Below, in pieces: positions 1 to 12,550 of a stretch of DNA of 12,550 nucleotides; within the stretch, counting starts at the first letter, position 1; every line of letters begins with the position of its first letter. The notes under the pieces are model-generated. The model was given only the letters and a program-made list of their open reading frames with translations, was not told the DNA's origin and searched no databases. A program made the position numbers and the translations under genes. This stretch comes from a virus (Duplodnaviria > Heunggongvirae > Uroviricota > Caudoviricetes), in the IMG/VR virus record IMGVR_UViG_2609459803_000003, positions 1 to 12,550 of that record; one strand, 5' to 3'.

Positions 1-327
1 GGCGGTGTTATCTGCGTGACCTGGTTCATCAATAGTACCCAGGTTAAGCACACTGACGGCACGCATATTATCAGCATCGATAAAGCAGCGGGTGCCTTCA
101 TCTGCAAGATCTTTAGAATAACGGGTAAAGTCATCGATGCTGGCAGTGGAAAGCGCACCACGGAAACGGAAGCGATTTAAATTAAATTTTTCCAGATCAT
201 GAATGCGGAAATTCTCAGGCAATGCCACAGCATCGGCACCAATCTTACTGATAATTTCATTAACACTCTGAGCAGAAATAAGGGCATGGATTTGATTAAT
301 TGCGGTTGCGTCTAAGTTCTGAGACAT
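1..327 (-). CDS. Conserved prophage early-region protein, N-terminal 109 codons only (gene continues beyond window start); tentatively YfdQ/DUF2303-like
   Basis: Minus-strand ATG at 327..325 preceded by GAGGA Shine-Dalgarno (revcomp of 333-339); open frame to window edge translating [67 protein letters not shown]... Not in ORF track because truncated by the window. Family assignment is from memory of prophage gene neighbourhoods, not a search. Confidence 0.7.
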
Positions 328-392
328 AATAAGTCCTCACTATATAAAGATATTCAGTGATGAGATAAATAATCAGTTAATTAAGAACGATA

Positions 393-755
393 TTAATGAC
401 CTGCTGCGCGGAGTTTTCCGTCAGGTTCACCGGCAAGAGTCAGTAACTGTCCCTGGTCTTCCTGCAGAATAGTCAGGCGACCACCGCGATTGACATACAT
501 CGGCGTTTCGGTGGTGTCTTCTTCGGAAATTTTCCCGCGGTTAGTCGGGCGAACATATGAGAGTTTGTGTTTGATTTTCACACGGTTCTCATCAAATGGT
601 TCGATTTCCAGGTTGAGTGAGACCTTACCTTTGGTTTTCGTGTTCATCACACCGGAAGCGACTTCACTGAGAACTGCGCCGATTTTGGTTTCAAATACGC
701 CGCCGTCCAGCTCCCCGATAAATGCCTGCACATCAGTACTGCGTTCGCTAGCCAT
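393..755 (-). CDS. Small conserved prophage protein (120 aa), function unknown (possibly YfdP-like)
   Basis: Internal start of the 226-aa track ORF: ATG at 755 has a GAGGAG Shine-Dalgarno 7 nt upstream, whereas the upstream 105 codons are Arg/Cys-rich junk (MRLSARGLRLRL...). Product MASERSTDVQAFIGELDGGVFETKIGAVLSEV... Stop TAA at 393-395. Sits 65 bp upstream of the next leftward gene, operon-like. Confidence 0.75.
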   Translation of the reverse strand: MASERSTDVQAFIGELDGGVFETKIGAVLSEVASGVMNTKTKGKVSLNLEIEPFDENRVKIKHKLSYVRPTNRGKISEEDTTETPMYVNRGGRLTILQEDQGQLLTLAGEPDGKLRAAGH

Positions 756-1354
756 TTTGCTGCTCCTCATCATATCGACCCTGCAAGGCCGATTAGTTTC
801 TCCACAAAACAGAGAAGAACACCTGCGGTGGCAGCCGCCCGGATGGATTGGTTTATGAGCCCGTCGTCCGGTGATGCTCTTCTCTGTTTTGTAAAAAGAG
901 CGGTACCAGCCGGAAGCAAGGGTACAAACTGGTACCGCCAGGACTACACACAGCATAAAGTTGTGGTGCCGGGTGCCTCCCGGTGCCTGGCGAAGGTTGC
1001 ACACCAGGCGGGTGGGTATCCACAGAAGGTCGACTGTCAGCCTCAACCTTAACCCGCGTGCGCTGAGCCGCATTCACCACAACGCTAAGGATTCTCTTTG
1101 GTTGAAAATACTTAGCTGTTATGTGCCTGTCTTTTCACCACTTCAGGCTCGGTGGTATCCTTTTAAGCCCGTATACATAAAAGGAAAATCAAATGACTTT
1201 TGATGAAAAAGAACTTGATAATGCATTAATAAAATCATCGTAACGTCGCTCTTTTCCTGTCTCAGCGACACTCAGCAGAAACAGTTCTACGAATCGGCTT
1301 TCAACATGATCGAGCGTTGTTGTTTCTGCGATGCCGACGAGTTACCTGAAAAAA

Positions 1355-1630
1355 TCAGGAAACAGTTGGCTGATGCTCTTCGAGTGCGACTTTCTGACCA
1401 ATTTTCTGAAATGTACTCTCCGAATTTGGACAAATAGAAAAAGGCCATTTCCATTCAGGGTCTGATGGAAATACTTCAGCCTGTTCCAAAGCACGGCGTA
1501 AAGAGAACACAACTCCAGCCATAATCTGATGTTTCCCATTGGTCCAGCTATCGCCGCTCTGATCTACAGGGGCGGCTATGTCGTATGACCAAACGACTTC
1601 ACAGTTATTGTTTAAAATCTGGACTTTCAT
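1355..1630 (-). CDS. Hypothetical protein (91 aa) occupying the first leftward (N-gene) position; not N-like
   Basis: ORF-track ORF 1355..1651; I prefer the internal ATG at 1630 because AGGTG lies 6 nt upstream, while the 1651 ATG has no SD and abuts a GTGCC/GGCAC hairpin (1653-1666). Product MKVQILNNNCEVVWSYDIAAPVDQSGDSWTNGKHQ... has protein-like composition and no arginine-rich motif. AT-richer than flanks. Overlapped antisense by a 43-codon plus-strand ORF (1306..1437), so the call is uncertain. Confidence 0.45.
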   Translation of the reverse strand: MKVQILNNNCEVVWSYDIAAPVDQSGDSWTNGKHQIMAGVVFSLRRALEQAEVFPSDPEWKWPFSICPNSESTFQKIGQKVALEEHQPTVS

Positions 1631-1837
1631 TTCATACACCTGCTTTAACATGAGTGCCTAGTGGCACAACATGACTCAACGAATCATCCTGGACTTCATA
1701 TGCCCCAGGCGGCTACTTCGTGGGCGTCCTGCCTGTTCGTTTTTGACATTTACTGACTGCTTACGACACATGCACCGTGTTGCAACCAGATTTTGTTGTA
1801 ATCCTGTAGTTGGTCTGGAACAAAAGATAAAATTAAA

Positions 1838-1874
1838 TTGCGAGATATGCAAGTGATATTTGCGGAATATGCAA
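1838..1874. promoter_or_regulatory. OL-like operator pair: two 15-bp sites TTGCGAGATATGCAA (1838-1852) and TTGCGGAATATGCAA (1860-1874), with a candidate leftward promoter overlapping them
   Basis: Both sites have TTGC-N7-GCAA dyad symmetry and match the 15-mer TTGCGTGATAAGCAA at 2641-2655 on the other side of the repressor gene. Centres are 22 bp apart. On the minus strand TTGCAT, a 17-nt spacer and TATCTT form a plausible sigma70 promoter pointing left. Confidence 0.5.
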
Positions 1875-1881
1875 ATTGATA

Positions 1882-1908
1882 GGTAATAAAAAGCCACCTT
1901 TCGGTGGC
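1882..1908 (-). terminator. Rho-independent terminator downstream of the repressor gene
   Basis: Minus-strand reading: GCCACC-GAAA-GGTGGC perfect 6-bp GC-rich stem with tetraloop, followed immediately by TTTTTATTACC. Located 20 bp after the repressor stop (1928). Confidence 0.7.
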
Positions 1909-1927
1909 CGATGGAAGGATATTGAGG

Positions 1928-2620
1928 TTAATTATGTCTCTTAAGGGTTTGCGACTGACTGATTAAGACCTTTCCAAAGACCATGAATCGGTGTTCGTTT
2001 TCGCTAGTAATTCCCCATTCACGGTAAATCTGGTTATCAGAAATCACCAGCAGTTTGTCAGGAATCATTTGAAGTCTTTTAACGTATATTTTGTCATCAA
2101 AACCAAAGACATATATACCATCACCATCAAACTGATTGATGCTGACATCAACGAAGATGAGATCTCCTGGCTCAATGGTTGGACACATACTGTCCCCACG
2201 AACGTTGATAACTTTGATGTGATTGGCTGGTCGTCCGCCGAACATTGATACAGCATTATCAGTTCTGTATTCGATGGCATGAATCACATCAATGACATCA
2301 CCGCCCTGGATAAGGCCATTTCCCGCACTGGCACTGATATCCAGCATTTCAATACGGAACACATCCTTCACCTGCGCAACATCCTCATCATTACTGTTTT
2401 TATATACAGTATTACTTTTGTGGGCAGAGGTAAAGAGATCAGCAATATCAACACCTAAGCTCTTGGCAATATTACTCAGTGTTTGTTCGGTAAATTGTTT
2501 TTGCTTACCCGTTTCTAAGCGCGAGATGTTCGCCGCATCTACTCCTATTGCTTCAGCGAGATCGGCGATTTTCATGTTCTTCGCTTGGCGAAGTTGTCTG
2601 ACTCGGTTTCCTATGTTCAT
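1928..2620 (-). CDS. cI: cI-like prophage repressor (N-terminal HTH_XRE, C-terminal S24 LexA-like autopeptidase domain)
   Basis: 230-aa ORF. N-terminus MNIGNRVRQLRQAKNMKIADLAEAIGVDAANISRLETGKQ is a classic XRE helix-turn-helix. C-terminal half carries the Ser/Lys dyad context of S24 peptidases (VRGDSMCPTIEPGDLIFVD ... IYVKRLQ). Divergent from a cro-like gene across an operator-bearing intergenic region. No Shine-Dalgarno before the ATG, compatible with a leaderless transcript as for lambda cI. Confidence 0.9.
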   Translation of the reverse strand: MNIGNRVRQLRQAKNMKIADLAEAIGVDAANISRLETGKQKQFTEQTLSNIAKSLGVDIADLFTSAHKSNTVYKNSNDEDVAQVKDVFRIEMLDISASAGNGLIQGGDVIDVIHAIEYRTDNAVSMFGGRPANHIKVINVRGDSMCPTIEPGDLIFVDVSINQFDGDGIYVFGFDDKIYVKRLQMIPDKLLVISDNQIYREWGITSENEHRFMVFGKVLISQSQTLKRHN

Positions 2621-2640
2621 GCGTTTATTACATTTCTTTA

Positions 2641-2717
2641 TTGCGTGATAAGCAAATCAACTTGCGCAAAATAATTGCGTGAAATAACATGCATAACGCG
2701 CAATATTTGGAGGGCGT
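2641..2717. promoter_or_regulatory. OR-like operator/promoter region between divergent repressor and cro-like genes
   Basis: Contains the 15-mer TTGCGTGATAAGCAA (2641-2655), the perfect palindrome TTGCGCAA (2662-2669), and further TTGCG / CGCAA half-sites (2675-2679, 2699-2703). Candidate rightward promoter: TTGCGC (2662-2667), 17-nt spacer, TAACAT (2685-2690), followed by GGAGG (2708-2712) and the cro-like ATG at 2718. Confidence 0.55.
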
Positions 2718-2978
2718 ATGCAATCACCATTACGAAATGTGCGTAAGGCGCATGGTTTCACTTTGCAGCATGTTGCTGCGGGTGTTCAAGTCAATCCAGC
2801 GACGTTGAGTCGTATTGAGAGGCTGGAGCAGATTCCATCTATCGAGCTTGCAGAACGTTTAGCCAATTTTTTTAAGGGTGAAGTCAGCGAAATGCAGATT
2901 CTTTATCCGGCACGTTTTCAATCTAGCCAAAACCAGAATGGGTTTAAACCACAGGAACAGGAGGTGAACCGTGGGTAA
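2718..2978 (+). CDS. cro: Cro-like HTH transcriptional regulator
   Basis: 86-aa ORF with GGAGG 6 nt upstream. N-terminal HTH signature HGFTLQHVAAGVQVNPATLSRIERLEQ. First rightward gene, divergent from the repressor. Confidence 0.8.
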   Translation: MQSPLRNVRKAHGFTLQHVAAGVQVNPATLSRIERLEQIPSIELAERLANFFKGEVSEMQILYPARFQSSQNQNGFKPQEQEVNRG

Positions 2979-3522
2979 GCATCACTGGAAAGTAGAAAAA
3001 CAGCCTGAGTGGTACGTGAAAGCTGTCAGAAAAACTATCGCAGCGTTGCCGGGGGGTTACGCTGAAGCAGCTGACTGGCTGGATGTAACAGAGAACGCAT
3101 TATTTAATCGCCTTCGTGCCGATGGCGATCAAATTTTCCCGCTGGGATGGGCAATGATTTTACAACGTGCTGGTGGAACTCACTTCATTGCTGACGCTGT
3201 GGCGCAGTCTGCAAATGGCGTCTTTGTGTCTCTTCCTGATGTCGAGGATGTGGACAACGCCGATATCAACCAACGTCTGCTGGAAGTCATTGAACAGATC
3301 GGCAGTTATTCAAAACAGATTCGTTCAGCAATTGAAGACGGTGTAGTGGAACCGCATGAGAAGACAGCAATTAACGATGAGCTGTACCTCTCAATTTCGA
3401 AGCTGCAGGAGCATGCAGCACTGGTCTACAAAATTTTTTGCATTTCAGAAAGTAATGACGCCCGCGAGTGTGCAGCTCCGGGCGCCGTGGCGTGTCGTGA
3501 CTGTGGAGAAACTAACGCATGA
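2971..3522 (+). CDS. Early regulatory protein at the cII position (183 aa; cII/YdaT-like by position, not confirmed by sequence)
   Basis: GTG start at 2971 (ORF track shows M) with GGAGGTGA SD 6 nt upstream; overlaps the cro-like stop by 8 nt. Product begins [48 protein letters not shown] and ends in a Cys-rich tail [17 protein letters not shown]. Function inferred from synteny only. Confidence 0.65.
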
Positions 3523-3857
3523 ACAGTTTAACAACACACTACCGTCGCTCGCAACTGATTGCGCTTCCTGTACCGGGTGGAAAAGCGAAGGTGGAGTATT
3601 GCTATGCAGTGAATGTACCAGGTGACAGGGAAATTGTAACCCACAGCTTTGCAGAGTGGGCTGTGGGGGATTTCAACCGGCAGAAGGAGACAGTCCTTTG
3701 CGACAAGTTAACCGCTGGTTCAAAGATCACTACGGAGTGCCCGTCAGAGTCATTCGTTGGGAGCCGGAAACACAACGGGTTATCTACCTCCGCGAAGGCT
3801 ATGAGCATGAGTGCTTCAGCCCGCTCGAACAGTTTCGTCGTAAATTCAGGGAAATAG
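3519..3857 (+). CDS. Hypothetical early protein; the 5' part is well supported, the 3' half of this frame looks non-protein-like (probable frameshift, see findings)
   Basis: ATG at 3519 overlaps the upstream stop (ATGA) and has GGAGAA 8 nt upstream. N-terminal translation [52 protein letters not shown] is protein-like; the remainder (…[22 protein letters not shown]) is Ser-rich low complexity. Confidence 0.5.
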
Positions 3858-3877
3858 AGGTCGGTCATGAGCACTAA
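3626..3877 (+). CDS. Alternative-frame ORF overlapping the 3' half of 3519..3857; probably the true C-terminal reading frame of the same gene
   Basis: Frame open from 3626 (ORF track lists it from a GTG at 3656). Translation ...[58 protein letters not shown] is protein-like. Stop TAA 3875-3877 overlaps the next gene start by 11 nt. No convincing SD of its own. Confidence 0.4.
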
Positions 3878-4484
3878 ATTAACCGGCTATGTATGGGATG
3901 GTTGCGCTGCATCAGGCATGAAATTATCCAGCGTGGCAGTTATGGCCCGCCTGGCTGATTTCAGTAATGACGAAGGTGTGTGCTGGCCATCAATTGAAAC
4001 CATTGCCCGCCAGATTGGCGCGGGGATGAGTACCGTCAGAACGGCTATCGCACGGCTGGAAGCAGAAGGCTGGTTAACGCGTAAGGCGCGTCGCCAGGGT
4101 AACCGCAATGCGTCGAATGTTTATCAGCTTAACGTTGCGAAGCTTCAGGCAGCGGCATTTTCTCAACTGTCAGATTCTGACCCGTCAAAATCTGACGCAT
4201 CAAAATCTGACCCGTCAAAATTTGATGCGTCGAAATCTGGCAAAAAAGCGGGTTTTCACCCGTCAGAATCTGGCGGGGATCCGTCAGTAAAATCAAAACA
4301 TGATCCGTCAGATAAAAAAACTTCTCGTCCGGACGCTTCGCAACCGGACACGCAGACGGATGAACAGGATTTTTTAACTCGCCATCCTGATGCGGTTGTA
4401 TTCAGCCCTAAAAAGCGCCAGTGGGGAACGCAGGATGATTTGACCTGCGCACAGTGGCTCTGGAAAAAAATCATCGCCCTGTAA
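3867..4484 (+). CDS. Replication initiator, lambda O-like (N-terminal HTH DNA-binding domain plus iteron-encoding linker); C-terminal domain apparently missing
   Basis: 205-aa ORF with GAGG 9 nt upstream. N-terminus [70 protein letters not shown] is a winged-HTH replication-initiator type. Middle encodes SDPSKSDASKSDPSKFDASKS from a tandem DNA repeat, as the lambda O gene carries ori iterons internally. Only about 45 codons follow the repeat region before the stop, abutting a rusA remnant. Confidence 0.8.
   Translation: MSTKLTGYVWDGCAASGMKLSSVAVMARLADFSNDEGVCWPSIETIARQIGAGMSTVRTAIARLEAEGWLTRKARRQGNRNASNVYQLNVAKLQAAAFSQLSDSDPSKSDASKSDPSKFDASKSGKKAGFHPSESGGDPSVKSKHDPSDKKTSRPDASQPDTQTDEQDFLTRHPDAVVFSPKKRQWGTQDDLTCAQWLWKKIIAL
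4171..4320. repeat. Iteron array / candidate origin of replication embedded in the O-like gene
   Basis: Four tandem 15-bp units (TCTGACCCGTCAAAA 4176-4190, TCTGACGCATCAAAA 4191-4205, TCTGACCCGTCAAAA 4206-4220, TTTGATGCGTCGAAA 4221-4235), then further CCGTCAG motifs at 4260, 4281 and 4305, and an A-run (4311-4320). GACGCATCA (4194-4202) and TGATGCGTC (4224-4232) are exact inverse complements. Confidence 0.65.
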
Positions 4485-4485
4485 C

Positions 4486-4665
4486 CGGATCCGCGATCTG
4501 GACAACTATAACAAGGCGCTGTTTGACGCCCTGACCCACGCGGGTGTGTGGGAAGACGACAGTCAGGTGAAAAGAATGCTGGTGGAGTGGGGACCGGTTA
4601 TCCCGGAAGGGAAGGTCGAGATCACTATCAGTAAGTACGAGAAACCGGCGGGTGCAGCCGCCTGA
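4486..4665 (+). pseudogene. rusA: rusA (Holliday-junction resolvase) 3' remnant lacking start codon and N-terminal half
   Basis: Frame open only from the stop at 4441-4443, with no start codon before the internal Met. Translation RIRDLDNYNKALFDALTHAGVWEDDSQVKRMLVEWGPVIPEGKVEITISKYEKPAGAAA resembles the C-terminal part of E. coli RusA as I recall it (…[28 protein letters not shown]…). Stop TGA 4663-4665. Confidence 0.7.
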
Positions 4666-4684
4666 TTAAGAGGAGAAACGAAGT

Positions 4685-5482
4685 ATGAATAATCTGATGG
4701 TTATTGATGGTATTGAAGTTCGTCGTGATGCTTATGGGCGTTACAGCCTGAACGATCTGCACAGGGCTGCCGGTTCTCTGGATAAGCATAAGCCTGCATT
4801 CTGGCTCCGCAATGAGCAAACTGAACGTTTAATAAGCGAGTTGCAAATTTGCAACTCGGTCAATATAGAGCCAGTTAACGTTATTCGTGGCGGAAATAAC
4901 CAGGGGACGTATGTCTGCAAAGAACTGGTGTATGCCTATGCAATGTGGATCAGCCCGTCATTCCATCTGAAGGTGATCCGTACTTTCGATATGGTAACCA
5001 GCACACCTGAAAAATTATCCGGGCAGGCTGCTGACAAGATGCAGGCTGGCGTGATCCTGCTGGACTTTATGCGCCGGGAATTAAACCTGTCTAACTCATC
5101 AGTGCTTGGAGCCTGTCAGAAGCTTCAGGAGGCTGTTGGCTTACCGAATCTGGCACCGCGCTATGCCATTGATGCTCCTGCTGATGCACACGATGGCTCA
5201 AGTCGCCCGACACTGTCACTGAGTGCACTGCTGAAACAGTATGGTATCCGCCTGACGGCTAATCAGGCATATCACCAGATGGTGAAGCTGGGGATCGTCG
5301 AGCAGCGCGAACGATACAGCCGTACCGCGATTAACAACATCAAAAAATTCTGGTCGCTGACAGCGAAAGGCTGCATGTTCGGCAAGAACATCACCAGTCC
5401 CGCAAATCCGCGCGAGACGCAGCCGCATTTCTTCGAGTCCCGATTCCCTGAGCTGTTAAAGCTGCTCGATACCGTTCATTGA
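4685..5482 (+). CDS. KilA-N domain protein (antirepressor-like), C-terminal domain of unknown function
   Basis: 265-aa ORF with AAGAGGAGAAA SD before the ATG. N-terminal 100 aa (…YGRYSLNDLHRAAG…KPAFWLRNEQTERLI…VIRGGNNQGTYVCKELVYAYAMWISPSFHLKVIRTFD) matches the KilA-N signature from memory. Confidence 0.8.
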   Translation: MNNLMVIDGIEVRRDAYGRYSLNDLHRAAGSLDKHKPAFWLRNEQTERLISELQICNSVNIEPVNVIRGGNNQGTYVCKELVYAYAMWISPSFHLKVIRTFDMVTSTPEKLSGQAADKMQAGVILLDFMRRELNLSNSSVLGACQKLQEAVGLPNLAPRYAIDAPADAHDGSSRPTLSLSALLKQYGIRLTANQAYHQMVKLGIVEQRERYSRTAINNIKKFWSLTAKGCMFGKNITSPANPRETQPHFFESRFPELLKLLDTVH

Positions 5483-5483
5483 G

Positions 5484-6479
5484 GTGACCGTGAGAGCACT
5501 ACTGACCCCTGAAATTGCCCCGCGTATGGGGATCGTTTTGTTCAGACCAGGTTCAGAGCTGATGCCCCTGTTTATGCAGGGGCGTGTCCTGCTGGAGCCT
5601 GAGCCGGAACGTTATTCATCTTTCGCCAGTGGTGCCGTTCCGGCGGCATCACAACCGCTGGCGGATGATCCTGCCGTTCGGGCCGTGTTCCGCAATGAGG
5701 CAGTGATCCGTCGTGCTGGTGGCGTGGAATGTCTTGAAAGCTGGTTACTTCGTGAAAAAGGCTGCCAGTGGCCTCATTCCGACTGGCACAGCGAGAACAT
5801 GACCACAATGCGACACGCTCCGGGCGCAATCCGTCTGTGCTGGCACTGCGATAACCAGCTGCGCGATCAGTTCACGGAACGGCTGGAATCAATGGCAACG
5901 GATAACTGTGCCCGCTGGGTGTTGTCTGTTGTGCGTCGGGATCTTGGTTTTGATGACAGTCACGTTGTGACAATGCCGGAACTGTGCTGGTGGCTGGTTC
6001 GTAATGATCTGGCGGATGCCTTACCGGAAAGCGCAGCCCGTAAGGCACTGAGATTACCGAAGCCTGTTGTGCAGGCGGTCACCCGGGAAAGTGACCTTGT
6101 ACCTTCGGTTCCTGCCACCAGCATTATCCAGGATAAAGCGAAAAAGGTGCTGGCGCTGAAAGTGGATCCGGAGTCGCCGGAGTCTTTTATGTTACGCCCA
6201 AAACGCCGCCGCTGGGTTAATGAAAAGTACACGCGCTGGGTTAAGACACAGCCGTGTGCATGTTGTGGAAAGCCTGCTGATGATCCCCACCACCTGATAG
6301 GTCACGGTCAGGGTGGAATGGGTACAAAAGCGCATGACCTCTTTGTGTTGCCTTTGTGCAGAAAGCATCACGACGAGCTGCATGCGGATACCGTGGCATT
6401 TGAAGAGAAGTATGGCTCCCAACTGGAGCTGATATTTCGTTTTATCGATCGCGCGCTGGCGATTGGTGTGTTGGCCTGA
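5484..6479 (+). CDS. DUF968-like protein (YdfU family) with C-terminal HNH-like Cys/His motif
   Basis: 331-aa ORF. C-terminus …WVKTQPCACCGKPADDPHHLIGHGQGGMGTKAHDLFVLPLCRKHHDELHAD has a C-x-CC…HH…H…C…HH…H zinc-finger/HNH-like pattern. Start is GTG at 5484 (track shows M), 1 nt after the upstream stop with no clear SD, so the start is uncertain (translational coupling or a downstream ATG at 5526). Sits immediately upstream of Q, as ydfU does in Qin-type prophages. Confidence 0.65.
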   Translation: MTVRALLTPEIAPRMGIVLFRPGSELMPLFMQGRVLLEPEPERYSSFASGAVPAASQPLADDPAVRAVFRNEAVIRRAGGVECLESWLLREKGCQWPHSDWHSENMTTMRHAPGAIRLCWHCDNQLRDQFTERLESMATDNCARWVLSVVRRDLGFDDSHVVTMPELCWWLVRNDLADALPESAARKALRLPKPVVQAVTRESDLVPSVPATSIIQDKAKKVLALKVDPESPESFMLRPKRRRWVNEKYTRWVKTQPCACCGKPADDPHHLIGHGQGGMGTKAHDLFVLPLCRKHHDELHADTVAFEEKYGSQLELIFRFIDRALAIGVLA

Positions 6480-6496
6480 TTTGGTGGAGAAAGTTG

Positions 6497-6862
6497 ATGC
6501 GTGATATTCAGATGGTTCTGGAGCGTTGGGGAGCATGGGCGGCGAGTGATAGTTCTGGAGTAGACTATTCGCCTATAGCTGCTGGGTTTAAGGGGCTTCT
6601 TCCCTACACAAGCAAAACACGTCAGGCTTGTTCAGATAGTGATGCATTAATTATTGAAGGTTGTCTTGCTCGTCTAAAGCAAAAAAAGCCAGATGAGCAC
6701 TCGCTGCTTGTGGCACATTATTTATACAGAATATCCAAGCGTAAGATTGCAAAGGTGCGTGGAAAGGATGAAAAATTGGTACGCATAGAAATACAACTAG
6801 CCGAAGGATTTATTGATGGTTGCCTTTCAATGTTGGATGTTAACCTTGAAATGGACGCTTAG
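6497..6862 (+). CDS. Q: Late-gene antiterminator Q
   Basis: ATG at 6497 with GGAG 7 nt upstream (the track ORF begins 3 nt earlier at a TTG). Product MRDIQMVLERWGAWAASDSSGVDYSPIAAGFKGL…CLARLKQKKPDEHSLLVAHYLY…IQLAEGFIDGCLSMLDVNLEMDA closely resembles the Qin-type Q (QuuQ) as I recall it. Lies upstream of the lysis cassette. Confidence 0.75.
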   Translation: MRDIQMVLERWGAWAASDSSGVDYSPIAAGFKGLLPYTSKTRQACSDSDALIIEGCLARLKQKKPDEHSLLVAHYLYRISKRKIAKVRGKDEKLVRIEIQLAEGFIDGCLSMLDVNLEMDA

Positions 6863-6869
6863 GGTTGCA

Positions 6870-6897
6870 CAGGTTGGCCCCATATGAGGCCAACCTG
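6870..6897. terminator. Perfect 10-bp inverted repeat hairpin between convergent Q and cargo cassette (bidirectional terminator-like, no U-tract)
   Basis: CAGGTTGGCC (6870-6879), loop CCATATGA, GGCCAACCTG (6888-6897). Sits exactly between the Q stop (6860-6862) and the minus-strand stop at 6898-6900. No T-run on either side, so function as an intrinsic terminator is uncertain. Confidence 0.4.
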
Positions 6898-7347
6898 TCA
6901 CAAGTGGGGGAAGATTTTTCGTAACACTAACCAACACCTTCCGAAGGTATATAGCGAAATTATAAGGGAGGATAAGCCTAACAGTATGAATAGGAAATCA
7001 ATAGGTTTGCCCGCAACAATAACATCATCAGGTAGAAACATCGCTATCAATGGAAATATACATGCGACGATGAGAGTTAACCCTGTTGAAAGTAATCTAT
7101 TTACCAGAGTTGGTAACACGTTGTTTTGCTTAAGGGCATTAATTGCTCCTTCCTTATCGCTGTTTGCACTACTAAATATAGATATTGCAGCCAGAACAAA
7201 ACCAAACAGGATGCCTGATATAGTCGAGAGCACCCCCGCTGTTGTGAGTACGTCAGCATGCTTCATCGGTTTAAACAGTTTTGTCGCTGCATAGGTCAAC
7301 AGAATCCAGAGGACGCATTTCCAGAGAAAAGTGGCTAATTCTCTCAT
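6898..7347 (-). CDS. Small inner-membrane protein with four predicted transmembrane helices (RexB-like topology); second gene of the cargo cassette
   Basis: Track ORF 6898..7359; the ATG at 7347 has GGAGGA 4-5 nt upstream, the ATG at 7359 has none. Hydrophobic segments by eye: LATFLWKCVLWILLTYAATKLF, VLTTAGVLSTISGILFGFVLAAISIFS, LSTGLTLIVACIFPLIAMFL, IDFLFILLGLSSLIISLYTF. AT-rich. Starts 10-22 nt after the stop of the upstream 313-aa gene. Confidence 0.7.
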   Translation of the reverse strand: MRELATFLWKCVLWILLTYAATKLFKPMKHADVLTTAGVLSTISGILFGFVLAAISIFSSANSDKEGAINALKQNNVLPTLVNRLLSTGLTLIVACIFPLIAMFLPDDVIVAGKPIDFLFILLGLSSLIISLYTFGRCWLVLRKIFPHL

Positions 7348-7368
7348 TGTGTCCTCCATGCTTGGTTA

Positions 7369-8310
7369 TTAGTCTCTGCTAGCGAGCTCATACTGTGCAA
7401 GATAGTTCGCGTTATCAATTTTAGCAGATATCATCGCCGTTCTGATATCAGAATCGGATGGATAACCGCTTTTGACAATGATTGTCTTTGTACTGACCAA
7501 TACTTGGTCAAGTAGACTTTTGGGCGTTCTATTGGATGGCTCTGTTACATCAATTTTTTTAATTTTTAGACCTCCAGAACCTTTTGGAAAAAGTTCAAGT
7601 AGTTCCTTAATAGCATCGGTGACAGAAGTTTTTAGATAGTTAAACCCTTGTTTTTTCGGGCGAATCCGACCTCGCATATTTAATCTTAGATGCGACCCGC
7701 CCATACCAACAACCATGTCAATAATTTCATTAGCTAAAGGGTTTTTAATCTTATAATTAGCTTTGTTAAAGTTTCTTGGAGCAGCAACTATAAGATCGAA
7801 ACTACGTAGGATATTTCCGTCCTCAAGCAGTTCCTTCATGCTCTCTTGTTTCCAAATGGCTTCAAAAGTGACGCTTTTTAAATCAGTTTTGTTATACAAA
7901 ATGAATGCCAGATCATTTACTTTGGGCCCTATATGGTTGAGGGTCATAGCTAATAAGTCCGTTTCGTAGTAATAGATAAAATATGTTCTTTCAACTACAG
8001 AATCTTTATCATTTAAAGGAATTGTTCTCTCACTACCTGTAGCATCCTCGATGAACGGTAGTAGGCATTCCCTTCTCCACGATACGTAACCAAAGTAACA
8101 TTGCAGTGTGGTATCTTTTTGAAGAATAACTAACTTTAACCCTCGATTTGGGGTGTCTGTTGTGTAAGTTATTGGAAAAGTTACAGTATCTGCTGTGGTC
8201 ATTTGCTCAAAGGCTAGTTTTGCAGCAGATGTGCCATCTTTTTTGCTTCCATTACCAGTGAAAAAACCAACTCTCACTCGCCTGGTTTTATTCTTATTTT
8301 CTGTACTCAT
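7369..8310 (-). CDS. Hypothetical soluble protein (313 aa), first gene of the antisense cargo cassette; no recognisable catalytic motif
   Basis: Long minus-strand ORF with protein-like composition: MSTENKNKTRRVRVGFFTGNGSKKDGTSAAKLAFEQM…ERTYFIYYYETDLLAMTLNHIGPKVNDLAFILYNKTD…IIDMVVGMGGSHLRLNMRGRIRPKK… No Walker A, HNH, DEDD or similar motif seen by eye. Double stop TAATAA. AT-rich against GC-richer phage flanks. Weak SD (GGA) before the ATG at 8310. Confidence 0.75.
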   Translation of the reverse strand: MSTENKNKTRRVRVGFFTGNGSKKDGTSAAKLAFEQMTTADTVTFPITYTTDTPNRGLKLVILQKDTTLQCYFGYVSWRRECLLPFIEDATGSERTIPLNDKDSVVERTYFIYYYETDLLAMTLNHIGPKVNDLAFILYNKTDLKSVTFEAIWKQESMKELLEDGNILRSFDLIVAAPRNFNKANYKIKNPLANEIIDMVVGMGGSHLRLNMRGRIRPKKQGFNYLKTSVTDAIKELLELFPKGSGGLKIKKIDVTEPSNRTPKSLLDQVLVSTKTIIVKSGYPSDSDIRTAMISAKIDNANYLAQYELASRD

Positions 8311-8433
8311 TATCGATCCGAAATAATTTTAGCAACCGTGTGAAAAATACAACAAAAAAAAGAGGAAATCATTAGCGCGGTCCGCAAAAAACATTGTAAT
8401 CTGTTAAGAGTGGTTACTTCGCCACACAGCTTA

Positions 8434-8460
8434 AACCCGCCGTCGAGCGGGTTTTGTCGT
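8434..8460 (+). terminator. Rho-independent terminator upstream of the lysis genes (tR'-like)
   Basis: AACCCGC (8434-8440), loop CGTCGA, GCGGGTT (8447-8453), then TTTTGTCGTTTCTG. Plus-strand orientation, about 150 bp upstream of the holin start, as lambda tR' precedes S. Confidence 0.6.
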
Positions 8461-8606
8461 TTCTGTGGCTGGGGATTCGTTGGTCCTGGCCTATTCCGCA
8501 GTTCTCCATCGGTTCGGCTTCTTTGATGTTTCCGCTTCTGATTTGCGGTACATGATGTTCCCTCAATTTGCACCTGCTGTATCAGCGAGGTGAGAGATAA
8601 CTACAA

Positions 8607-8933
8607 ATGCCTCATAACCCAAATACCTGGCTGGAGTTGGTCCAGAGCTGGTGGCGTGGAGACACACCGCTGGGCGCAGTGATTATGTCGATCGTTATGG
8701 CTGGCTTGCGCATTGCCTATTTTGGCGGTGGTGGTGGCTGGAAACGAAAAACGCTCGAGATTTTGCTCTGTGGTGCTCTGACGCTGACTTTTGCATCCGC
8801 TCTTGAGTATGTCGGATGGCCTAAATCTCTTTCTGTTGCCATTGGTGGCGGCGTTGGGCTGATCGGGGTCGATGCTATTCGTGGGGCTGCAATGAGAGTA
8901 ATCGGTAATAAGTTTGGTGGCTCTAAGGAGTAA
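8607..8933 (+). CDS. S: Holin (lambda S-like class I, three predicted TM segments)
   Basis: 108-aa ORF immediately upstream of the endolysin. Three hydrophobic segments (LGAVIMSIVMAGLRIAYF; TLEILLCGALTLTFASAL; LSVAIGGGVGLIGVDAI) and a charged C-terminus, same length class as lambda S. Confidence 0.8.
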   Translation: MPHNPNTWLELVQSWWRGDTPLGAVIMSIVMAGLRIAYFGGGGGWKRKTLEILLCGALTLTFASALEYVGWPKSLSVAIGGGVGLIGVDAIRGAAMRVIGNKFGGSKE

Positions 8934-8936
8934 TTT

Positions 8937-9413
8937 ATGCAGGTACTAAATTCCCAGCGTAAAGCTTTCCTGGATATGGTGGCATGGTCAGAAGGAACGG
9001 ATAACGGGCGACAACCGACACGTAACCACGGTTATGACGTTATTGTCGGTGGCGAACTCTTCACTGATTACTCCGATCACCCTCGCAAACTTGTCACGCT
9101 AAACCCGAAACTCAAATCAACAGCTGCAGGCCGTTATCAACTTCTTTCACGTTGGTGGGATGCTTACCGCAAGCAGCTTGGGCTGAAAGACTTCTCTCCC
9201 AGAAGCCAGGACTCAGTGGCATTACAGCAGATTAAAGAGCGTGGCGCTTTACCGATGATTGATCGCGGCAATATTCGTCAGGCAATCGACCGTTGCAGCA
9301 ATATCTGGGCGTCTTTACCTGGTGCAGGTTACGGTCAGTATGAACATAAAATTGGCGACCTGATTTCCCGGTTTAAAGAGGCTGGTGGGGTGGTAAATGA
9401 AGCTGAGATATAA
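8937..9413 (+). CDS. R: Endolysin, lambda R-type lytic transglycosylase
   Basis: 158-aa product MQVLNSQRKAFLDMVAWSEGTDNGRQPTRNHGYDVIVGGELFTDYSDHPRKLVTLNPKLKSTAAGRYQLLSRWWDAYRKQLGLKDFSP… is near-identical over most of its length to lambda R as I recall it, including the catalytic-Glu context WSEGTD. Confidence 0.95.
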   Translation: MQVLNSQRKAFLDMVAWSEGTDNGRQPTRNHGYDVIVGGELFTDYSDHPRKLVTLNPKLKSTAAGRYQLLSRWWDAYRKQLGLKDFSPRSQDSVALQQIKERGALPMIDRGNIRQAIDRCSNIWASLPGAGYGQYEHKIGDLISRFKEAGGVVNEAEI

Positions 9414-9789
9414 GCTGGTTATTGTTGCCTTCTTTGTTACCGTCATTGGTTCCTTCATCTGGTCTGCCGGGCATTACTACAGCAAATATCTGCACGAAAA
9501 GGAGCGTGCTGATGAGGCTATACGAAATGCTGAATCAGCAACTGCCATTACCCGTAACGTTCTGCAATCACTGCAAATCATCAATACAGTTATAGAGGCT
9601 AACCAGCATGCAAAACAGCAGATTGCACTGGAGTCACAGAAAACCCAGGAAGATATCAAAGTGGCTGTTGCGGATGATGATTGTGCTTCACGTCCTGTGC
9701 CTGCTGCCGCTGCTGACCGGTTGCGGAAGTACGCGGACAGTTTACGTGAACACTCCGGCGGTACCACTGCCAGCCAGCTTGACTTCTGA
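9397..9789 (+). CDS. Rz: Rz-type i-spanin (inner-membrane spanin subunit)
   Basis: ATG at 9397 overlaps the endolysin 3' end. N-terminal signal-anchor MKLRYKLVIVAFFVTVIGSFIW followed by a charged, helix-prone periplasmic region. Position and architecture are typical; at 130 aa it is shorter than lambda Rz (153 aa). Confidence 0.8.
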   Translation: MKLRYKLVIVAFFVTVIGSFIWSAGHYYSKYLHEKERADEAIRNAESATAITRNVLQSLQIINTVIEANQHAKQQIALESQKTQEDIKVAVADDDCASRPVPAAAADRLRKYADSLREHSGGTTASQLDF

Positions 9790-9922
9790 TACACCTGTAC
9801 CGTTTATACCCAACCCACTGACGTATGGTGCAAGTCTTGATTTGAATGTAAGTTTGTTATCCGCGTTGGCTCAATGTAATAGGGATAAGTCTGATATCAG
9901 AATCATTGATAATCAAAATTGA
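9674..9922 (+). CDS. Rz1: Rz1-type o-spanin lipoprotein, starting inside Rz in the +1 frame and extending beyond the Rz stop
   Basis: Within track ORF 9608..9922; start placed at ATG 9674 (or 9677), giving MMIVLHVLCLLPLLTGCGS… with lipobox LLTG|C. Mature part is Pro-rich (TPAVPLPASLTSDTPVPFIPNPLTY) like lambda Rz1. The ORF continues 133 nt past the Rz stop into AT-rich sequence. Confidence 0.65.
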   Translation: MMIVLHVLCLLPLLTGCGSTRTVYVNTPAVPLPASLTSDTPVPFIPNPLTYGASLDLNVSLLSALAQCNRDKSDIRIIDNQN

Positions 9923-10125
9923 TGTATATTTTTATCGTCATGTAGATAACGAACAAGGTATTCCTCTGATACGTTTCGTTGAATACAGGTCATGGGTAGG
10001 CATTGCAATATCGCTTCGAAATTATCTGTGATAATGCTCTTAATTTTGAATGTATGTATTTGGGAAAAGAGATAAAGTAATAGTCTAATTAATGGAGATA
10101 TCCACAAAACACAAAAGGGACTATT

Positions 10126-10632
10126 ATGCGACCAGATCAATTTTTCTATCCAGATACTTTTACCTTTAATTCATCCACCTATTATGGTCAACGTGACTCA
10201 TCTAAAGGTCGATTGTATATTCCTATTGAAAGTGACTTATGTCCATTTAATATCGGCGATATCATTGTGCAAAAAATGGTCGACAGGGAAAGACTATTTG
10301 AAGTGCTTGATTACGAGGTGCAAATTAGTCTCGAGGCTGGTTGCCCTGGCTACTCACATTTGGCGGTATTGATAGTGAATGCATTGGATGTAAAAGAGAA
10401 GCCGAAGCAGATTACGACCCATTTGACGTTTAACGGTGCTATTAATGCTGGTGGTGATTTTCAAGCCGGTAATGACAATTCGATCACAAAGAATATAACC
10501 ATTCAACAACTACATGATGCTATAGAGCATTGCAATGATCCAGAGGTTAAAAGCCTTTGGCAAAAGCTATTGGAAAATCCGACGTTTGCTTCAATTGCTT
10601 CAATATTGGCAAAAAGTGCTTTAGGACAGTAA
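10126..10632 (+). CDS. Hypothetical protein (168 aa), AT-rich orphan cargo gene between lysis and packaging modules
   Basis: ORF with AAAGGGA before the ATG. Product MRPDQFFYPDTFTFNSSTYYGQRDSSKGRLYIPIESDLCPFNIGDIIVQKMVDRERLFEVLDYEVQ… has no TM segments and no motif I recognise. Preceded by about 200 bp of AT-rich non-coding DNA and followed by its own terminator. Confidence 0.7.
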   Translation: MRPDQFFYPDTFTFNSSTYYGQRDSSKGRLYIPIESDLCPFNIGDIIVQKMVDRERLFEVLDYEVQISLEAGCPGYSHLAVLIVNALDVKEKPKQITTHLTFNGAINAGGDFQAGNDNSITKNITIQQLHDAIEHCNDPEVKSLWQKLLENPTFASIASILAKSALGQ

Positions 10633-10640
10633 TTCATCAA

Positions 10641-10666
10641 GCCCCATTCAATATGGGGTTTTTATG
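10641..10666 (+). terminator. Rho-independent terminator after the 168-aa cargo gene
   Basis: CCCCAT (10642-10647), loop TCAAT, ATGGGG (10653-10658), then TTTTTTAT; 9 nt after the stop at 10630-10632. Confidence 0.7.
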
Positions 10667-10689
10667 CTTATTACAAAGAGTTTTCTTCA

Positions 10690-11040
10690 ATGCCACCACG
10701 AACTCCAAAAGCCTGCCGTGTTCGCGGGTGCCGCCGTACCACCACTGACCCGTCAGGTTATTGCGAAAGCCACAAAAGCGAAGGCTGGAAGCAATACAAG
10801 CCAGGACAATCCCGTCATCAGCGCGGCTACGGTTCGAAGTGGGACGTTATCCGCGCGCGTGTGCTGAAACGTGACAAAGGTTTATGTCAGTTATGTCTGC
10901 GCGCTGGTGTGGTGCGTGAGGCGAAAACTGTTGACCACATCATCCCTAAAGCGCATGGCGGCACTGATGCCGACTGTAATCTGCAGAGTCTGTGCTGGCC
11001 GTGTCATAAGGCGAAGACGGCCCGTGAACGGCTTAAGTGA
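10690..11040 (+). CDS. HNH endonuclease (packaging-associated, adjacent to small terminase)
   Basis: 116-aa product with HNH motif …CQLCLRAGVVREAKTVDHIIPKAHGGTDADCNLQSLCWPCHKAKT… Placement next to the terminase small subunit is typical of HK97-like cos phages. Confidence 0.9.
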   Translation: MPPRTPKACRVRGCRRTTTDPSGYCESHKSEGWKQYKPGQSRHQRGYGSKWDVIRARVLKRDKGLCQLCLRAGVVREAKTVDHIIPKAHGGTDADCNLQSLCWPCHKAKTARERLK

Positions 11041-11066
11041 TAATAATTCTCAACTGTCTGAGGGGA

Positions 11067-11127
11067 GGGGCGGGTCAAATCTCTGCGGCCTGACGTCTTC
11101 AGGACTGCCCGCCCCATCGTTTTTTTA
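11067..11127 (+). other. GC-rich compound hairpin followed by a T7 run: terminator after the HNH gene and/or candidate cos/packaging site
   Basis: GGGGCGGG (11067-11074) pairs with CCCGCCCC (11108-11115), enclosing a nested CCTGA/TCAGG hairpin (11089-11103), followed by TTTTTTT (11120-11127). Located between the HNH and small terminase genes, where HK97-like genomes place their ends. Confidence 0.45.
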
Positions 11128-11165
11128 TACCCGCGAAAAATGAAATTTAACCAGGAGTGCCGCAT

Positions 11166-11486
11166 ATGGCTGGAACGGCGGGGCGTTCCGGGCGTCGCCC
11201 TAAGCCAACGGCGCGCAAGGCGCTGGCCGGAAACCCCGGCAAGCGAGCCCTGAACAAAGATGAACCTGTTTTTACGCCCATCAAAGGTGTTGAGCCACCG
11301 GAGTGGTTCGCTGAAGAAGAGCTTCCTCTCCCCGAACAGAAAAAAATCGAAAGAGTCCTGCGTGATGTCGGACTCTCCCGCACCCAGGCCAAAGCATTCA
11401 TGGCCGGGGGCTATAGCGCACTGTCCCTGCGCGACGCTGAGGATGTGGGCTCTGCACTGAATGCACTGAAAAATCTGAACTTCTAA
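11166..11486 (+). CDS. Terminase small subunit, P27 family
   Basis: ATG at 11166 with AGGAG 8 nt upstream (track ORF starts at a GTG at 11157). Product MAGTAGRSGRRPKPTARKALAGNPGKRALNKDEPVFTPIKGVEPPEWF… matches the P27-family N-terminal signature from memory. Confidence 0.85.
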   Translation: MAGTAGRSGRRPKPTARKALAGNPGKRALNKDEPVFTPIKGVEPPEWFAEEELPLPEQKKIERVLRDVGLSRTQAKAFMAGGYSALSLRDAEDVGSALNALKNLNF

Positions 11487-11500
11487 TCAGGAGAAATACG

Positions 11501-12550
11501 ATGGCGGTTGATATTAAAGATGTCGAACAGGTCGCGCAGGAGCTGCAGCAGAAGTTTGACGACTTCAAAGCAAAGAACGACAAGCGCGTGGATGCGATTG
11601 AGCAGGAAAAAGGCAAGCTTGCCGGGCAGGTGGAAACCCTGAACGGGAAACTCAGCGAGCTGGAAAATCTCAAAAGCGACCTTGAAAAAGAGCTGCTTGA
11701 GCTGAAACGTCCGGCTGGTGGAGCGCAAAATAAACTGGCCACCGAGCATAAAGAGGCGTTTGTGGGCTTCCTGCGTAAAGGCCGTGAAGACGGTCTGCGC
11801 GATCTGGAGCGTAAGGCATTGCAGGTGGGTACCGATGAAGACGGTGGCTACGCCGTGCCGGAAGAACTGGATCGCAACATTCTTAACCTGCTGAAAGATG
11901 AAGTGGTGATGCGTCAGGAAGCCACGGTGATCACCGTTGGCGGTTCCGACTACAAAAAACTGGTGAATCTGGGCGGTACGGCTTCCGGATGGGTGGGGGA
12001 AACGGATACGCGATCCCAGACTGCCACCTCCAGACTGGAGCTGATTGAACCTCTCATGGGGGAAATTTACGGCAACCCGCAGGCTACCCAGAAAATGCTG
12101 GACGATGCCTTCTTCAACGTGGAGGCCTGGATCAACAGCGAGCTGGCAACCGAATTTGCCGAACAGGAAGAAATTGCCTTTACCTCAGGCGATGGCACCA
12201 AGAAGCCGAAAGGGTTCCTGGCGTATGAATCCACTGATGAAACCGACAAGGTCCGGGCGTTCGGCAAACTTCAGCATATTGTATCCGGCGAAGCGACCGC
12301 GGTGACCGCAGACGCCATTATCAAACTGATTTACACGCTGCGTAAGGCACACCGCACTGGCGCGAAGTTCATGATGAACAACAACAGCCTGTTTGCCATC
12401 CGTCTGCTTAAAGACAGCGAGGGTATTCGCCTTGGTTGCTCATACCAGGCCTCCGGTATTCTAAAGGGGAAAATAAGAGTGCGTTGCGAGAGTGCTGATG
12501 CTTTTTTAAACGTTAAGCATAGTCGGCGACAGCAGGAGGATTATTCTTAA
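11501..12550 (+). CDS. Major capsid protein, HK97 family (with N-terminal coiled-coil delta domain); 3' end aberrant, probably truncated or disrupted
   Basis: AGGAGA SD 7 nt before the ATG. N-terminal 100 aa is coiled-coil-like (MAVDIKDVEQVAQELQQKFDDFKAKNDKRVDAIEQEKGKLAGQVETLNGKLSELENLKSDLEKELLEL). The body contains …GAKFMMNNNSLFAIRLLKDSEG…, resembling the HK97 gp5 segment …HNIALLKDNEGRYIFGG… After about position 12435 the translation (CSYQASGILKGKIRVRCESADAFLNVKHSRRQQEDYS) no longer resembles capsid and stops at the window end. Confidence 0.75.
   Translation: MAVDIKDVEQVAQELQQKFDDFKAKNDKRVDAIEQEKGKLAGQVETLNGKLSELENLKSDLEKELLELKRPAGGAQNKLATEHKEAFVGFLRKGREDGLRDLERKALQVGTDEDGGYAVPEELDRNILNLLKDEVVMRQEATVITVGGSDYKKLVNLGGTASGWVGETDTRSQTATSRLELIEPLMGEIYGNPQATQKMLDDAFFNVEAWINSELATEFAEQEEIAFTSGDGTKKPKGFLAYESTDETDKVRAFGKLQHIVSGEATAVTADAIIKLIYTLRKAHRTGAKFMMNNNSLFAIRLLKDSEGIRLGCSYQASGILKGKIRVRCESADAFLNVKHSRRQQEDYS

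Follow-up and report, generated by a model that had tools for sequence, protein, structure and literature searches.

Amyloid signaling motifs of the RHIM, PP, and BASS types control regulated cell death in animals and fungi. Bacterial amyloid motifs have been described almost only in filamentous, multicellular lineages, together with NLR-like receptors: BASS1 to BASS10 were reported in Actinobacteria and Cyanobacteria, where they are paired with such receptors, and BASS3 is RHIM-like (10.1101/2020.01.06.895854). Likewise, a 2026 review limits bacterial RHIM-like signaling to filamentous bacteria. In the literature examined, only one system of E. coli has been linked to phage defense to date, namely, Bab/Agp (BASS11) from a prophage hotspot of E. 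coli ECOR25, for which amyloid-triggered abortive infection was shown experimentally and whose key motif residues are I87-G88-S89-V90, Q92, D99, and N100 (10.1101/2024.11.07.622273). Here, we analyzed a gene in a 12,550-nt stretch of an E. coli prophage (IMG/VR record IMGVR_UViG_2609459803_000003, positions 1 to 12,550; termed the window). We found it to be a conserved, selected, and mobile cargo gene (moron) in the bor/iss slot of lambdoid prophages. It encodes a protein of three parts, in which constraint is highest in an unstructured stretch that is RHIM-like in a sister clade. We tentatively propose that this prophage-borne product acts as a single chain in abortive infection or exclusion by means of an amyloid-like switch. 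Literature searches returned no paper dealing with its family, PHROG 5789, or with RHIM-like motifs in proteins of phages or satellites, and no description appears to exist of a RHIM-like motif in a single-gene family carried by phages and satellites. The cargo segment comprised the following features:

9882 to 10689, no strand assigned: variable cargo segment (moron cassette), from the conserved part of Rz/Rz1 to the start of the HNH gene
9923 to 10125, + strand: AT-rich leader of 203 bp, 5' of the open reading frame (ORF)
10027 to 10035, + strand: extended −10-like element TGTGATAAT, the sole promoter candidate, with no good −35 element (read from the sequence)
10115 to 10119, + strand: Shine-Dalgarno-like AAGGG, 6 nt 5' of the ATG (read from the sequence)
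10126 to 10632, + strand: coding sequence with ATG start, 168 amino acids (aa) plus stop, member of PHROG 5789
10126 to 10395, + strand: predicted N-terminal six-stranded beta-barrel, residues 1 to 90 (AlphaFold2, predicted local distance difference test [pLDDT] of about 75 to 93)
10423 to 10506, + strand: 28-residue Q/N/G-rich motif LTFNGAINAGGDFQAGNDNSITKNITIQ, residues 100 to 127 (from an alignment of 84 family members)
10507 to 10629, + strand: predicted C-terminal three-helix module, helices 126 to 134, 139 to 149, and 152 to 166 (AlphaFold2, pLDDT 64 to 80)
10639 to 10666, + strand: intrinsic-terminator-like hairpin AAGCCCCAT-TCAAT-ATGGGGTTT plus T-run

Like Bab/Agp, the window gene encodes a small protein and is located in a variable cargo slot of an E. 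coli prophage. In both, a short Q/N/G-rich motif, disordered in the monomer, is accompanied by a small helical module with a terminal hydrophobic helix, and the proposed logic is in both that amyloid conversion would unleash a membrane-acting module. In contrast to the window system, which has one gene and no motif partner, Bab/Agp consists of two genes, the motif being shared by the C terminus of the effector and the N terminus of a large TPR-GreA/B-PIN sensor. In the window protein, the motif is internal, an N-terminal barrel replaces the separate sensor, and the helical module with its hydrophobic helix is C-terminal, whereas it is N-terminal in Bab. The motif consensus also differs from BASS11, from which it is set apart by the published key residues. 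HET-S of Podospora anserina, which joins a HeLo pore-forming domain to a prion-forming motif, follows the same proposed principle, in which folding of the motif remodels the adjacent helical domain and a terminal hydrophobic helix reaches the membrane. However, the domain order is reversed in the window protein, no homology to HeLo, Hell, or Bell domains was detected (including no Pfam match to HeLo or Hell), and while HET-S is templated by a separate NLR or prion, the trigger here would be intramolecular or homotypic. The general pattern of BASS and fungal two-component systems, with the motif present in two adjacent gene products, is absent from this locus. Likewise, BASS effectors begin with Bell- or HeLo-like helices and carry the motif at the extreme C terminus, whereas here the barrel is N-terminal and the motif internal.

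To define the slot, window positions 9000 to 11300 were compared by megablast with the full set of complete E. coli genomes, in which the flanks for lysis and packaging were common but the middle varied. At an empty site in strain UID2309220027 (L040), only 26 bp separated Rz1 from HNH; homology to the window ended at 9881 and restarted exactly at 10690, so the inserted block spans 9882 to 10689, which coincides with the AT-rich stretch. In strain PSS-08-2 (L041), the same slot was filled by iss, a bor homologue, on the opposite strand, and in strain TW10828 (L042) by an S1 peptidase. Slot matches in other relatives list ClpP, a GrlR-family regulator, and other hypothetical proteins as gene names. 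Since the junction is empty or occupied by iss or a peptidase in related E. coli prophages, it is a true moron slot. A first-pass annotation made from the sequence alone had placed the gene at the second classic moron location of lambdoid genomes and had named comparative genomics of the junction as a check; the comparison supported this placement in the bor/iss slot, with variable cargo between common flanks. The gene lies between genes that are adjacent in relatives, has a deviant base composition, and is followed by its own terminator-like element. Lambda bor and E. coli iss occupy the same slot and likewise combine foreign base composition, an own terminator, and presence or absence among relatives; iss was found in related prophages at exactly the junction of the window gene. 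Bor and Iss, however, are ∼97-aa outer membrane lipoproteins encoded antisense, whereas the window protein has 168 aa, is encoded on the sense strand, and has no sequence or structural relation to them. Its N terminus (MRPDQFFYPD) contained neither a signal sequence nor a lipobox, and no Bor family match was obtained with Pfam or NCBIfam.

The variable segment also reached into the flanking lysis gene. It started within Rz1/LysC (9882 to 9922, with the stop at 9922), and the last ∼13 codons of the o-spanin thus vary by cargo; in relatives with other cargo, Rz is annotated as partial, or LysC is of a different size.

The ORF (+ strand, ATG start) and its AT-rich surroundings, which had been noted from about 9840 to 10640, were both confirmed. 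G+C content was 0.32 to 0.40 over ∼9750 to 10650, compared to 0.49 just upstream and 0.52 to 0.60 downstream. In four further loci, the gene had a G+C content of 0.39 to 0.41 against 0.50 to 0.56 for the locus overall, so that it was AT-rich relative to its carrier in 4/4 cases. The hairpin starts 7 nt past the stop codon and has a 9-bp G+C-rich stem (10639 to 10661) followed by TTTTAT, with a folding energy of −13.3 kcal/mol. The number of terminators found by scanning was by itself not above chance (1 found versus 0.8 expected). A hairpin plus T-run followed the gene in 6/9 divergent homologous loci, comparable elements being present in L025, L027, L002, L006, and L010. The terminator proposed in the first-pass annotation is therefore present as a hairpin that recurs behind the gene, with termination predicted from the sequence. 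Rfam gave zero matches within the window.

In antisense insertions, a G+C-rich hairpin plus T-run (e.g., AGCCCGCCTTGAGCGGGCATTTTTTT) was also seen immediately 5' of the homologous gene (L002, ∼5945 to 5975; L006 and L010, ∼5930 to 5960), followed by a −10-like element (TG-n-TAAAGT or TAAGTT). The cassette therefore seems to have an upstream insulator in addition to its downstream terminator.

The protein had been described as an orphan of unrecognized sequence. This did not hold, since it matched PHROG 5789 end to end (E = 7e-79) and has more than 100 homologue clusters. PHROG 5789 is of unknown function and carries no annotation; the dissection into domains and motif is from the present analysis. 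No match was obtained with Pfam or NCBIfam. A first homologue search returned 22 clusters with 49 to 98% identity, 18 of them full length (165 to 171 aa) and 4 of them shorter fragments, and their alignment contained 30 invariant columns. A second profile search revealed a sister clade with ∼30% identity to the window protein, whose members are always named "hypothetical." This clade is assigned to the same PHROG (matched, for example, by P0173) and occurs in Escherichia, Klebsiella, Serratia, Yersinia, Salmonella, Pseudomonas, Halomonas, Alcanivorax, Vibrio, and others. When 1.84 billion representative proteins were searched exhaustively with a profile, 80 relatives were obtained. P0025 (4708 aa) and P0097 (1793 aa) were discarded as Big_9/cadherin repeat proteins whose summed weak matches are artifacts, and a full-length profile searched against PDB sequences retrieved only designed helical repeat proteins, which we regard as noise. 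Synonymous sites were saturated in most pairs (pS of about 0.8; pN of 0.23 to 0.45), and the dN/dS ratio of 0.086 comes from the single pair with unsaturated synonymous sites; it points to strong purifying selection on the gene. Neither a match to a structural or lysis protein nor a frameshift was found, each of which had been named beforehand as an observation that would speak against a moron.

Two members, P0079 (326 aa) and P0147 (328 aa), were about twice the normal family length. P0079 carries a C-terminal GNAT acetyltransferase domain behind a degenerate motif. It could be a genuine fusion or a read-through of adjacent cassettes; the latter is possible because a GNAT gene lies two genes 3' of a family member in L044. 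A homologue search with the C-terminal module returned fragments only and no new domain fusions.

Two AlphaFold2 runs, based on 19 and 97 sequences, gave concordant models of the window protein. Between the predicted barrel, which we propose to be a sensor or binding domain, and the helical module, residues 92 to 122 had a pLDDT below 50 even with the 97-sequence alignment. A motif that becomes folded only upon assembly would be expected to show such low confidence despite a deep alignment. The helical module ends in a small-residue-rich hydrophobic tail, NPTFASIASILAKSALGQ. In 94% of the 84 family members, the last 16 to 18 residues were the most hydrophobic segment (15-mer), with a median Kyte-Doolittle value of 1.85 in the wider family. 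The best 15-mer of the window protein reached 1.3, in agreement with the earlier statement that it has no transmembrane segment. Foldseek, the structure-based search that had been called for, gave no significant match. Receptors of cyclic di-GMP of the PilZ family carry the motifs RxxxR and (D/N)xSxxG; the window protein had neither these motifs nor a PilZ match in Pfam. Across the family, the motif and the C-terminal helices with their tail recurred behind unrelated N-terminal regions, which include another barrel, a different small domain (PHROG 16834), a zinc ribbon, and domains with weak, sub-threshold matches to winged helices.

Constraint was highest in the Q/N/G-rich stretch. Among 84 diverse members, Q113 and G115 were the only invariant columns, while N118, K142, and N151 were at least 90% conserved, and the motif region had the lowest nonsynonymous divergence (pN of 0.233, compared to 0.388 in the barrel and 0.284 in the helical module). 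The corresponding consensus of the sister clade and of more distant clades is x-N-I-G-S-[VI]-S-G-x-Q-V-Q-[IV]-G-x-x-N-x-x-x-x-N-I-S-I (an example is NTFNIGSVSGEQVQIGESNHMLVNISIT), with VQVG, VQIG, IQIG, or IQLG as the sister-clade core. RHIM (PF12721) was the Pfam family matched by most members (16/84; best E = 1.4e-5), and the matches fell on the conserved stretch in every displayed case; one protein, P0098, scored 24.9 bits over residues 101 to 116, above the gathering score of 20 bits. When the 28-column motif profile was searched against 177,635 distinct PDB sequences, 5 matches were obtained at E ≤ 10, all of them RIPK1/RIPK3 RHIM amyloid-fibril chains (8ib0 and 9m6m with E of about 0.03, 7dac, 12kl, and 7da4). 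The Pfam model named HET-S (PF17108, 23 positions) matched the same stretch of P0056 below threshold, and weak EAD10 matches in 4/84 members were likewise all below threshold. At the level of sequence, the family motif thus showed significant similarity to RHIM.

The signature shared by RHIM, fungal PP, and bacterial BASS3 has been published as G-φ-Q-φ-G (10.1101/2020.01.06.895854). The sister clade shares φ-Q-φ-G followed by x-x-N, with alternating polar and hydrophobic flanks, but in the family the G ahead of this core is displaced upstream by one or two residues (G-x-x-V-Q-I-G or G-D-F-Q-A-G), and the clade of the window protein differs in having F and A at the two φ positions. While BASS3 was reported from Actinobacteria and Cyanobacteria, paired with NLR-type receptors and Bell domains, the motif here is found in a single gene of enterobacterial phages. 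The likeness of the window protein to RHIM comes via homology with the sister clade because its own clade gives no direct signal; judged from the alignment, its motif is a diverged F-Q-A-G version of the sister-clade RHIM-like φ-Q-φ-G-x-x-N. The earlier remark that the protein has no nameable motif is thus superseded, with the motif recognizable through the sister clade.

A hidden Markov model of the motif was run against all ORFs of the window and of 38 related loci. It retrieved the gene itself only, except for a second member in L026. This locus contains two superfamily members with different N-terminal domains, one in each lambdoid moron slot and ∼2 kb apart: one in the Rz-to-terminase slot (5001 to 5504, +; core FQAG) and one of 163 aa in the Q-to-holin slot (2623 to 3114, −; core VQVG).

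The genomic position of the gene varied between carriers. In the close clade, four lambdoid backbones (the window, L004, L025, and L026) had it after Rz/Rz1 and before the packaging genes. It was antisense between TerL and portal in two podovirus-like elements (L010 and L028); in Serratia prophages, it was antisense, preceded by a 600-bp spacer, with virion genes on one side and a DUF927 primase on the other; and in L027, it followed a tail-region gene. Sister-clade genes were located antisense between the replication module and the capsid gene in islands of E. coli and Klebsiella that carry genes for integrase, AlpA, primase, capsid, protease, portal, HNH, TerS, and TerL, with no tail gene within the examined stretch, a layout that we take to be that of capsid-forming phage-inducible chromosomal island (PICI) satellites. 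The sister-clade version was present in at least 51 complete E. coli genomes, including strain 042. Any family member was found in only 3/50,697 deposited phage records, one of which shows the same satellite-like island layout. Antisense copies are not part of the structural-gene transcript and therefore need their own promoter in those loci; the window ORF may likewise have a promoter of its own.

The 106-kb record PQ569648.1 ("Klebsiella phage P12620-1," L039) contained portal, protease, capsid, an antisense sister-clade gene, and primase between 97.5 and 106 kb. This segment may be a co-assembled or co-packaged satellite.

More distant members had defense-type neighbors. One adjoined a KilA-N/BstA_C gene, a GNAT gene, and a YoeB/Phd pair, a second was found in a Vibrio island together with resolvase, DUF2971, HipA, and AIPR genes, and a third, beside a P2-like prophage, adjoined HEPN-like and subtilase genes. 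The Pseudomonas locus was considered as a P2 hotspot of the kind described by Rousset et al. and rejected, since that hotspot lies between gpA and gpQ and the locus lies beside gpD. An obligate two-gene system was rejected as well: the candidate partners (a 255-aa Klebsiella gene, a 200-aa Pseudomonas HEPN-like gene, and the downstream genes of L004, L025, and L026) have neither a family nor a motif in common with the gene, and no candidate recurs from locus to locus. In the Klebsiella island L035, the 255-aa gene (6230 to 6997, +) stops 3 nt upstream of the sister-clade start codon and had no Pfam, PADLOC, or PHROG match, an arrangement that suggests a two-gene operon in that lineage only.

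Taken together, the cargo status, the selection on the motif, the reciprocity of the RHIM match, the modularity, the defense neighborhoods, and the precedent of Bab/Agp led us to the abortive-infection or exclusion reading. The protein would be cytoplasmic and three-part, with its family mainly in temperate phages and phage satellites. Its N-terminal barrel would bind a cue produced during infection by another phage. Clustered copies would then nucleate cooperative, amyloid-like stacking of the φ-Q-φ-G-x-x-N motif (RHIM/BASS type), which would be disordered in the resting monomer, and this conversion would release the C-terminal helical module with its hydrophobic tail to attack the inner membrane. 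The infected cell would thereby be halted before the invader finishes its cycle, and the protein would be a mirror image of HET-S or Bab in a single chain. Of these steps, we infer lysogen expression, the trigger, the formation of amyloid, the targeting of the membrane, and the protection against phages.

Several observations weighed against this proposal. The window core, F112-Q113-A114-G115, departs from the RHIM tetrad (I/V)-Q-(I/V/L/C)-G. The window protein had no Pfam RHIM match even at E ≤ 10, and the motif profile of its clade alone retrieved no RHIM chain from the PDB. The RHIM matches of the family were short, with a best PDB E value of 0.027, and the 15 Pfam matches other than P0098 were sub-threshold, the eight displayed ones scoring 10 to 17 bits against the cutoff of 20. 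The motif is internal rather than terminal and, unlike in every characterized BASS or fungal system, no motif-sharing partner adjoins the gene. The tail in the window clade is weakly hydrophobic (median of 1.2) and too short for a standard transmembrane helix. No PADLOC-DB v2 match was found for the window protein at E ≤ 1, sister-clade proteins giving matches at noise level only, and the association with defense genes rests on a handful of neighborhoods. Moreover, two scans detected no consensus sigma-70 promoter on the + strand of the 203-bp leader, and because the gene runs in the same direction as the late operon, it might be nothing more than a late gene.

The strongest competing explanation, which we regard as rather unlikely, is an ordinary, non-amyloid moron, in which the Q/N/G stretch would be a flexible linker or a conventional oligomerization or partner-binding strand and the RHIM likeness would be due to chance similarity of a low-information motif. 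The protein could then still benefit the lysogen through its barrel or helices, e.g., in superinfection exclusion or host fitness. The missing direct RHIM signal in the window protein and its clade, the sub-threshold scores of most sister-clade matches, and the absence of an adjacent partner with the motif fit this explanation, and the same slot holds functionally unrelated cargo (iss, peptidases, and a GrlR-family regulator). However, the RHIM match was both reciprocal and specific, RHIM being the top Pfam family by number of members and RIPK1/RIPK3 chains being the only PDB matches. The supposed linker is also the most constrained part of the protein, with Q and G invariant and N nearly so, and it stayed unmodeled despite a deep alignment, something not usually seen with a simple linker or with a strand in a stable fold.

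We consider it improbable that the protein is instead an anti-defense decoy that would co-assemble with and poison an amyloid-signaling abortive-infection system of the host, protecting the element or a helper phage. An amyloid-based abortive-infection system does exist in E. coli (10.1101/2024.11.07.622273), and the family is carried by phages and satellites. The analogy is with herpesvirus RHIM proteins, which block necroptosis; viral RHIM decoys are an established strategy in animals (PMC7375649). However, no matching host motif protein was found near the gene or among the 80 relatives from the profile search, which comprised same-architecture proteins and the two repeat artifacts only. The gene sits in late or antisense cargo slots rather than in the early operons usual for anti-defense genes, and members also occur in non-phage islands adjoining abortive-infection-type genes. 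A conserved C-terminal module with a hydrophobic tail behind variable N-terminal domains is easier to reconcile with an effector whose sensors can be exchanged than with a decoy.

Finally, a late accessory of head assembly, packaging, or lysis with a role in virion maturation, as could be suggested by the resemblance of the barrel to head-tail adaptors or stoppers and by the constant vicinity of packaging or head genes, is very improbable, because its close relatives among prophages are without the gene or have unrelated cargo in the slot, which makes it dispensable for morphogenesis, and because it is antisense to the structural operon in many loci, is nearly absent from deposited phage records, had no significant Foldseek match and no match to a head-tail family of Pfam, and is intact in a prophage that has lost TerL, portal, and protease.

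If the amyloid-switch proposal is correct for this widespread one-gene family, RHIM/BASS3-type signaling would extend from animals, fungi, and multicellular bacteria to unicellular Proteobacteria and their viruses without the need for a separate receptor, and the ∼170-aa protein would offer a minimal model for an amyloid switch coupled to a sensor and an effector. It would further represent a new candidate class of prophage and satellite defense genes missed by PADLOC and a data point on the age of the RHIM lineage and on motif exchange by bacterial viruses. A broader generalization is more doubtful still: PHROG 5789 and its relatives might constitute an unrecognized class of single-chain RHIM-type amyloid-switch cell-death or exclusion proteins, in which a swappable N-terminal sensor nucleates the internal motif and thereby releases a membrane-active tail. 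We are equally hesitant to suppose that such a class is carried by temperate phages, capsid-encoding satellites, and defense islands of Enterobacterales, Vibrio, and Pseudomonas. Should the RHIM reading fail, the gene would still be a cleanly delimited, conserved moron of the bor/iss slot with natural empty-site and alternative-cargo comparators.

The carrier prophage combines an early and lysis region of lambdoid type with a head of HK97 type and a contractile tail. Gene identities in the flanks were compared with the RefSeq annotation of a near-identical prophage, and the position of the gene between lysis cassette and packaging genes, as given in the first-pass annotation, agreed with the following features:

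6494 to 6862: antiterminator Q, 5' border of a second moron slot
8607 to 8933: holin, the other border of that slot
8937 to 9413: GH24 lysozyme
9397 to 9789: Rz
9608 to 9922: Rz1/LysC, embedded
10690 to 11040: HNH endonuclease, with the small terminase gene also downstream

A 901-bp block around the gene was present in 30/5426 complete E. coli genomes, with at least 99% identity in 24 of them, and the gene was always annotated as encoding a hypothetical protein. Further occurrences of the block were in a single deposited phage (vB_EcoM-689R6) and 13 IMG/VR viral contigs. Compared to an intact relative (L001), the window prophage is without ∼4 kb, with window positions 11329/11330 joining L001 13531 to 17497; the loss at 11330 takes out TerL and portal completely and the greater part of both TerS and the protease gene. 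Another ∼2 kb of the early region (L001 4770 to 6763; window junction 4482/4483) is missing as well and includes part of a replication gene, PerC, an N6-adenine methylase, a LexA-like gene, and part of RusA. Because of these two losses, the prophage is defective; the cargo gene is nevertheless intact.

A second AT-rich block (G+C content of 0.36 to 0.39) was located at 6898 to 8310 on the − strand, in the other classic moron slot between Q and holin. It contains two antisense genes, encoding proteins of 313 aa (PHROG 7651) and 153 aa (PHROG 8552, with a weak DUF4064 match), neither of which had a Pfam or PADLOC match above threshold. The pair may be a two-gene defense or exclusion cassette. 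In the near-identical prophage L001, the same slot is occupied instead by an SDH-family Clp-fold serine protease.

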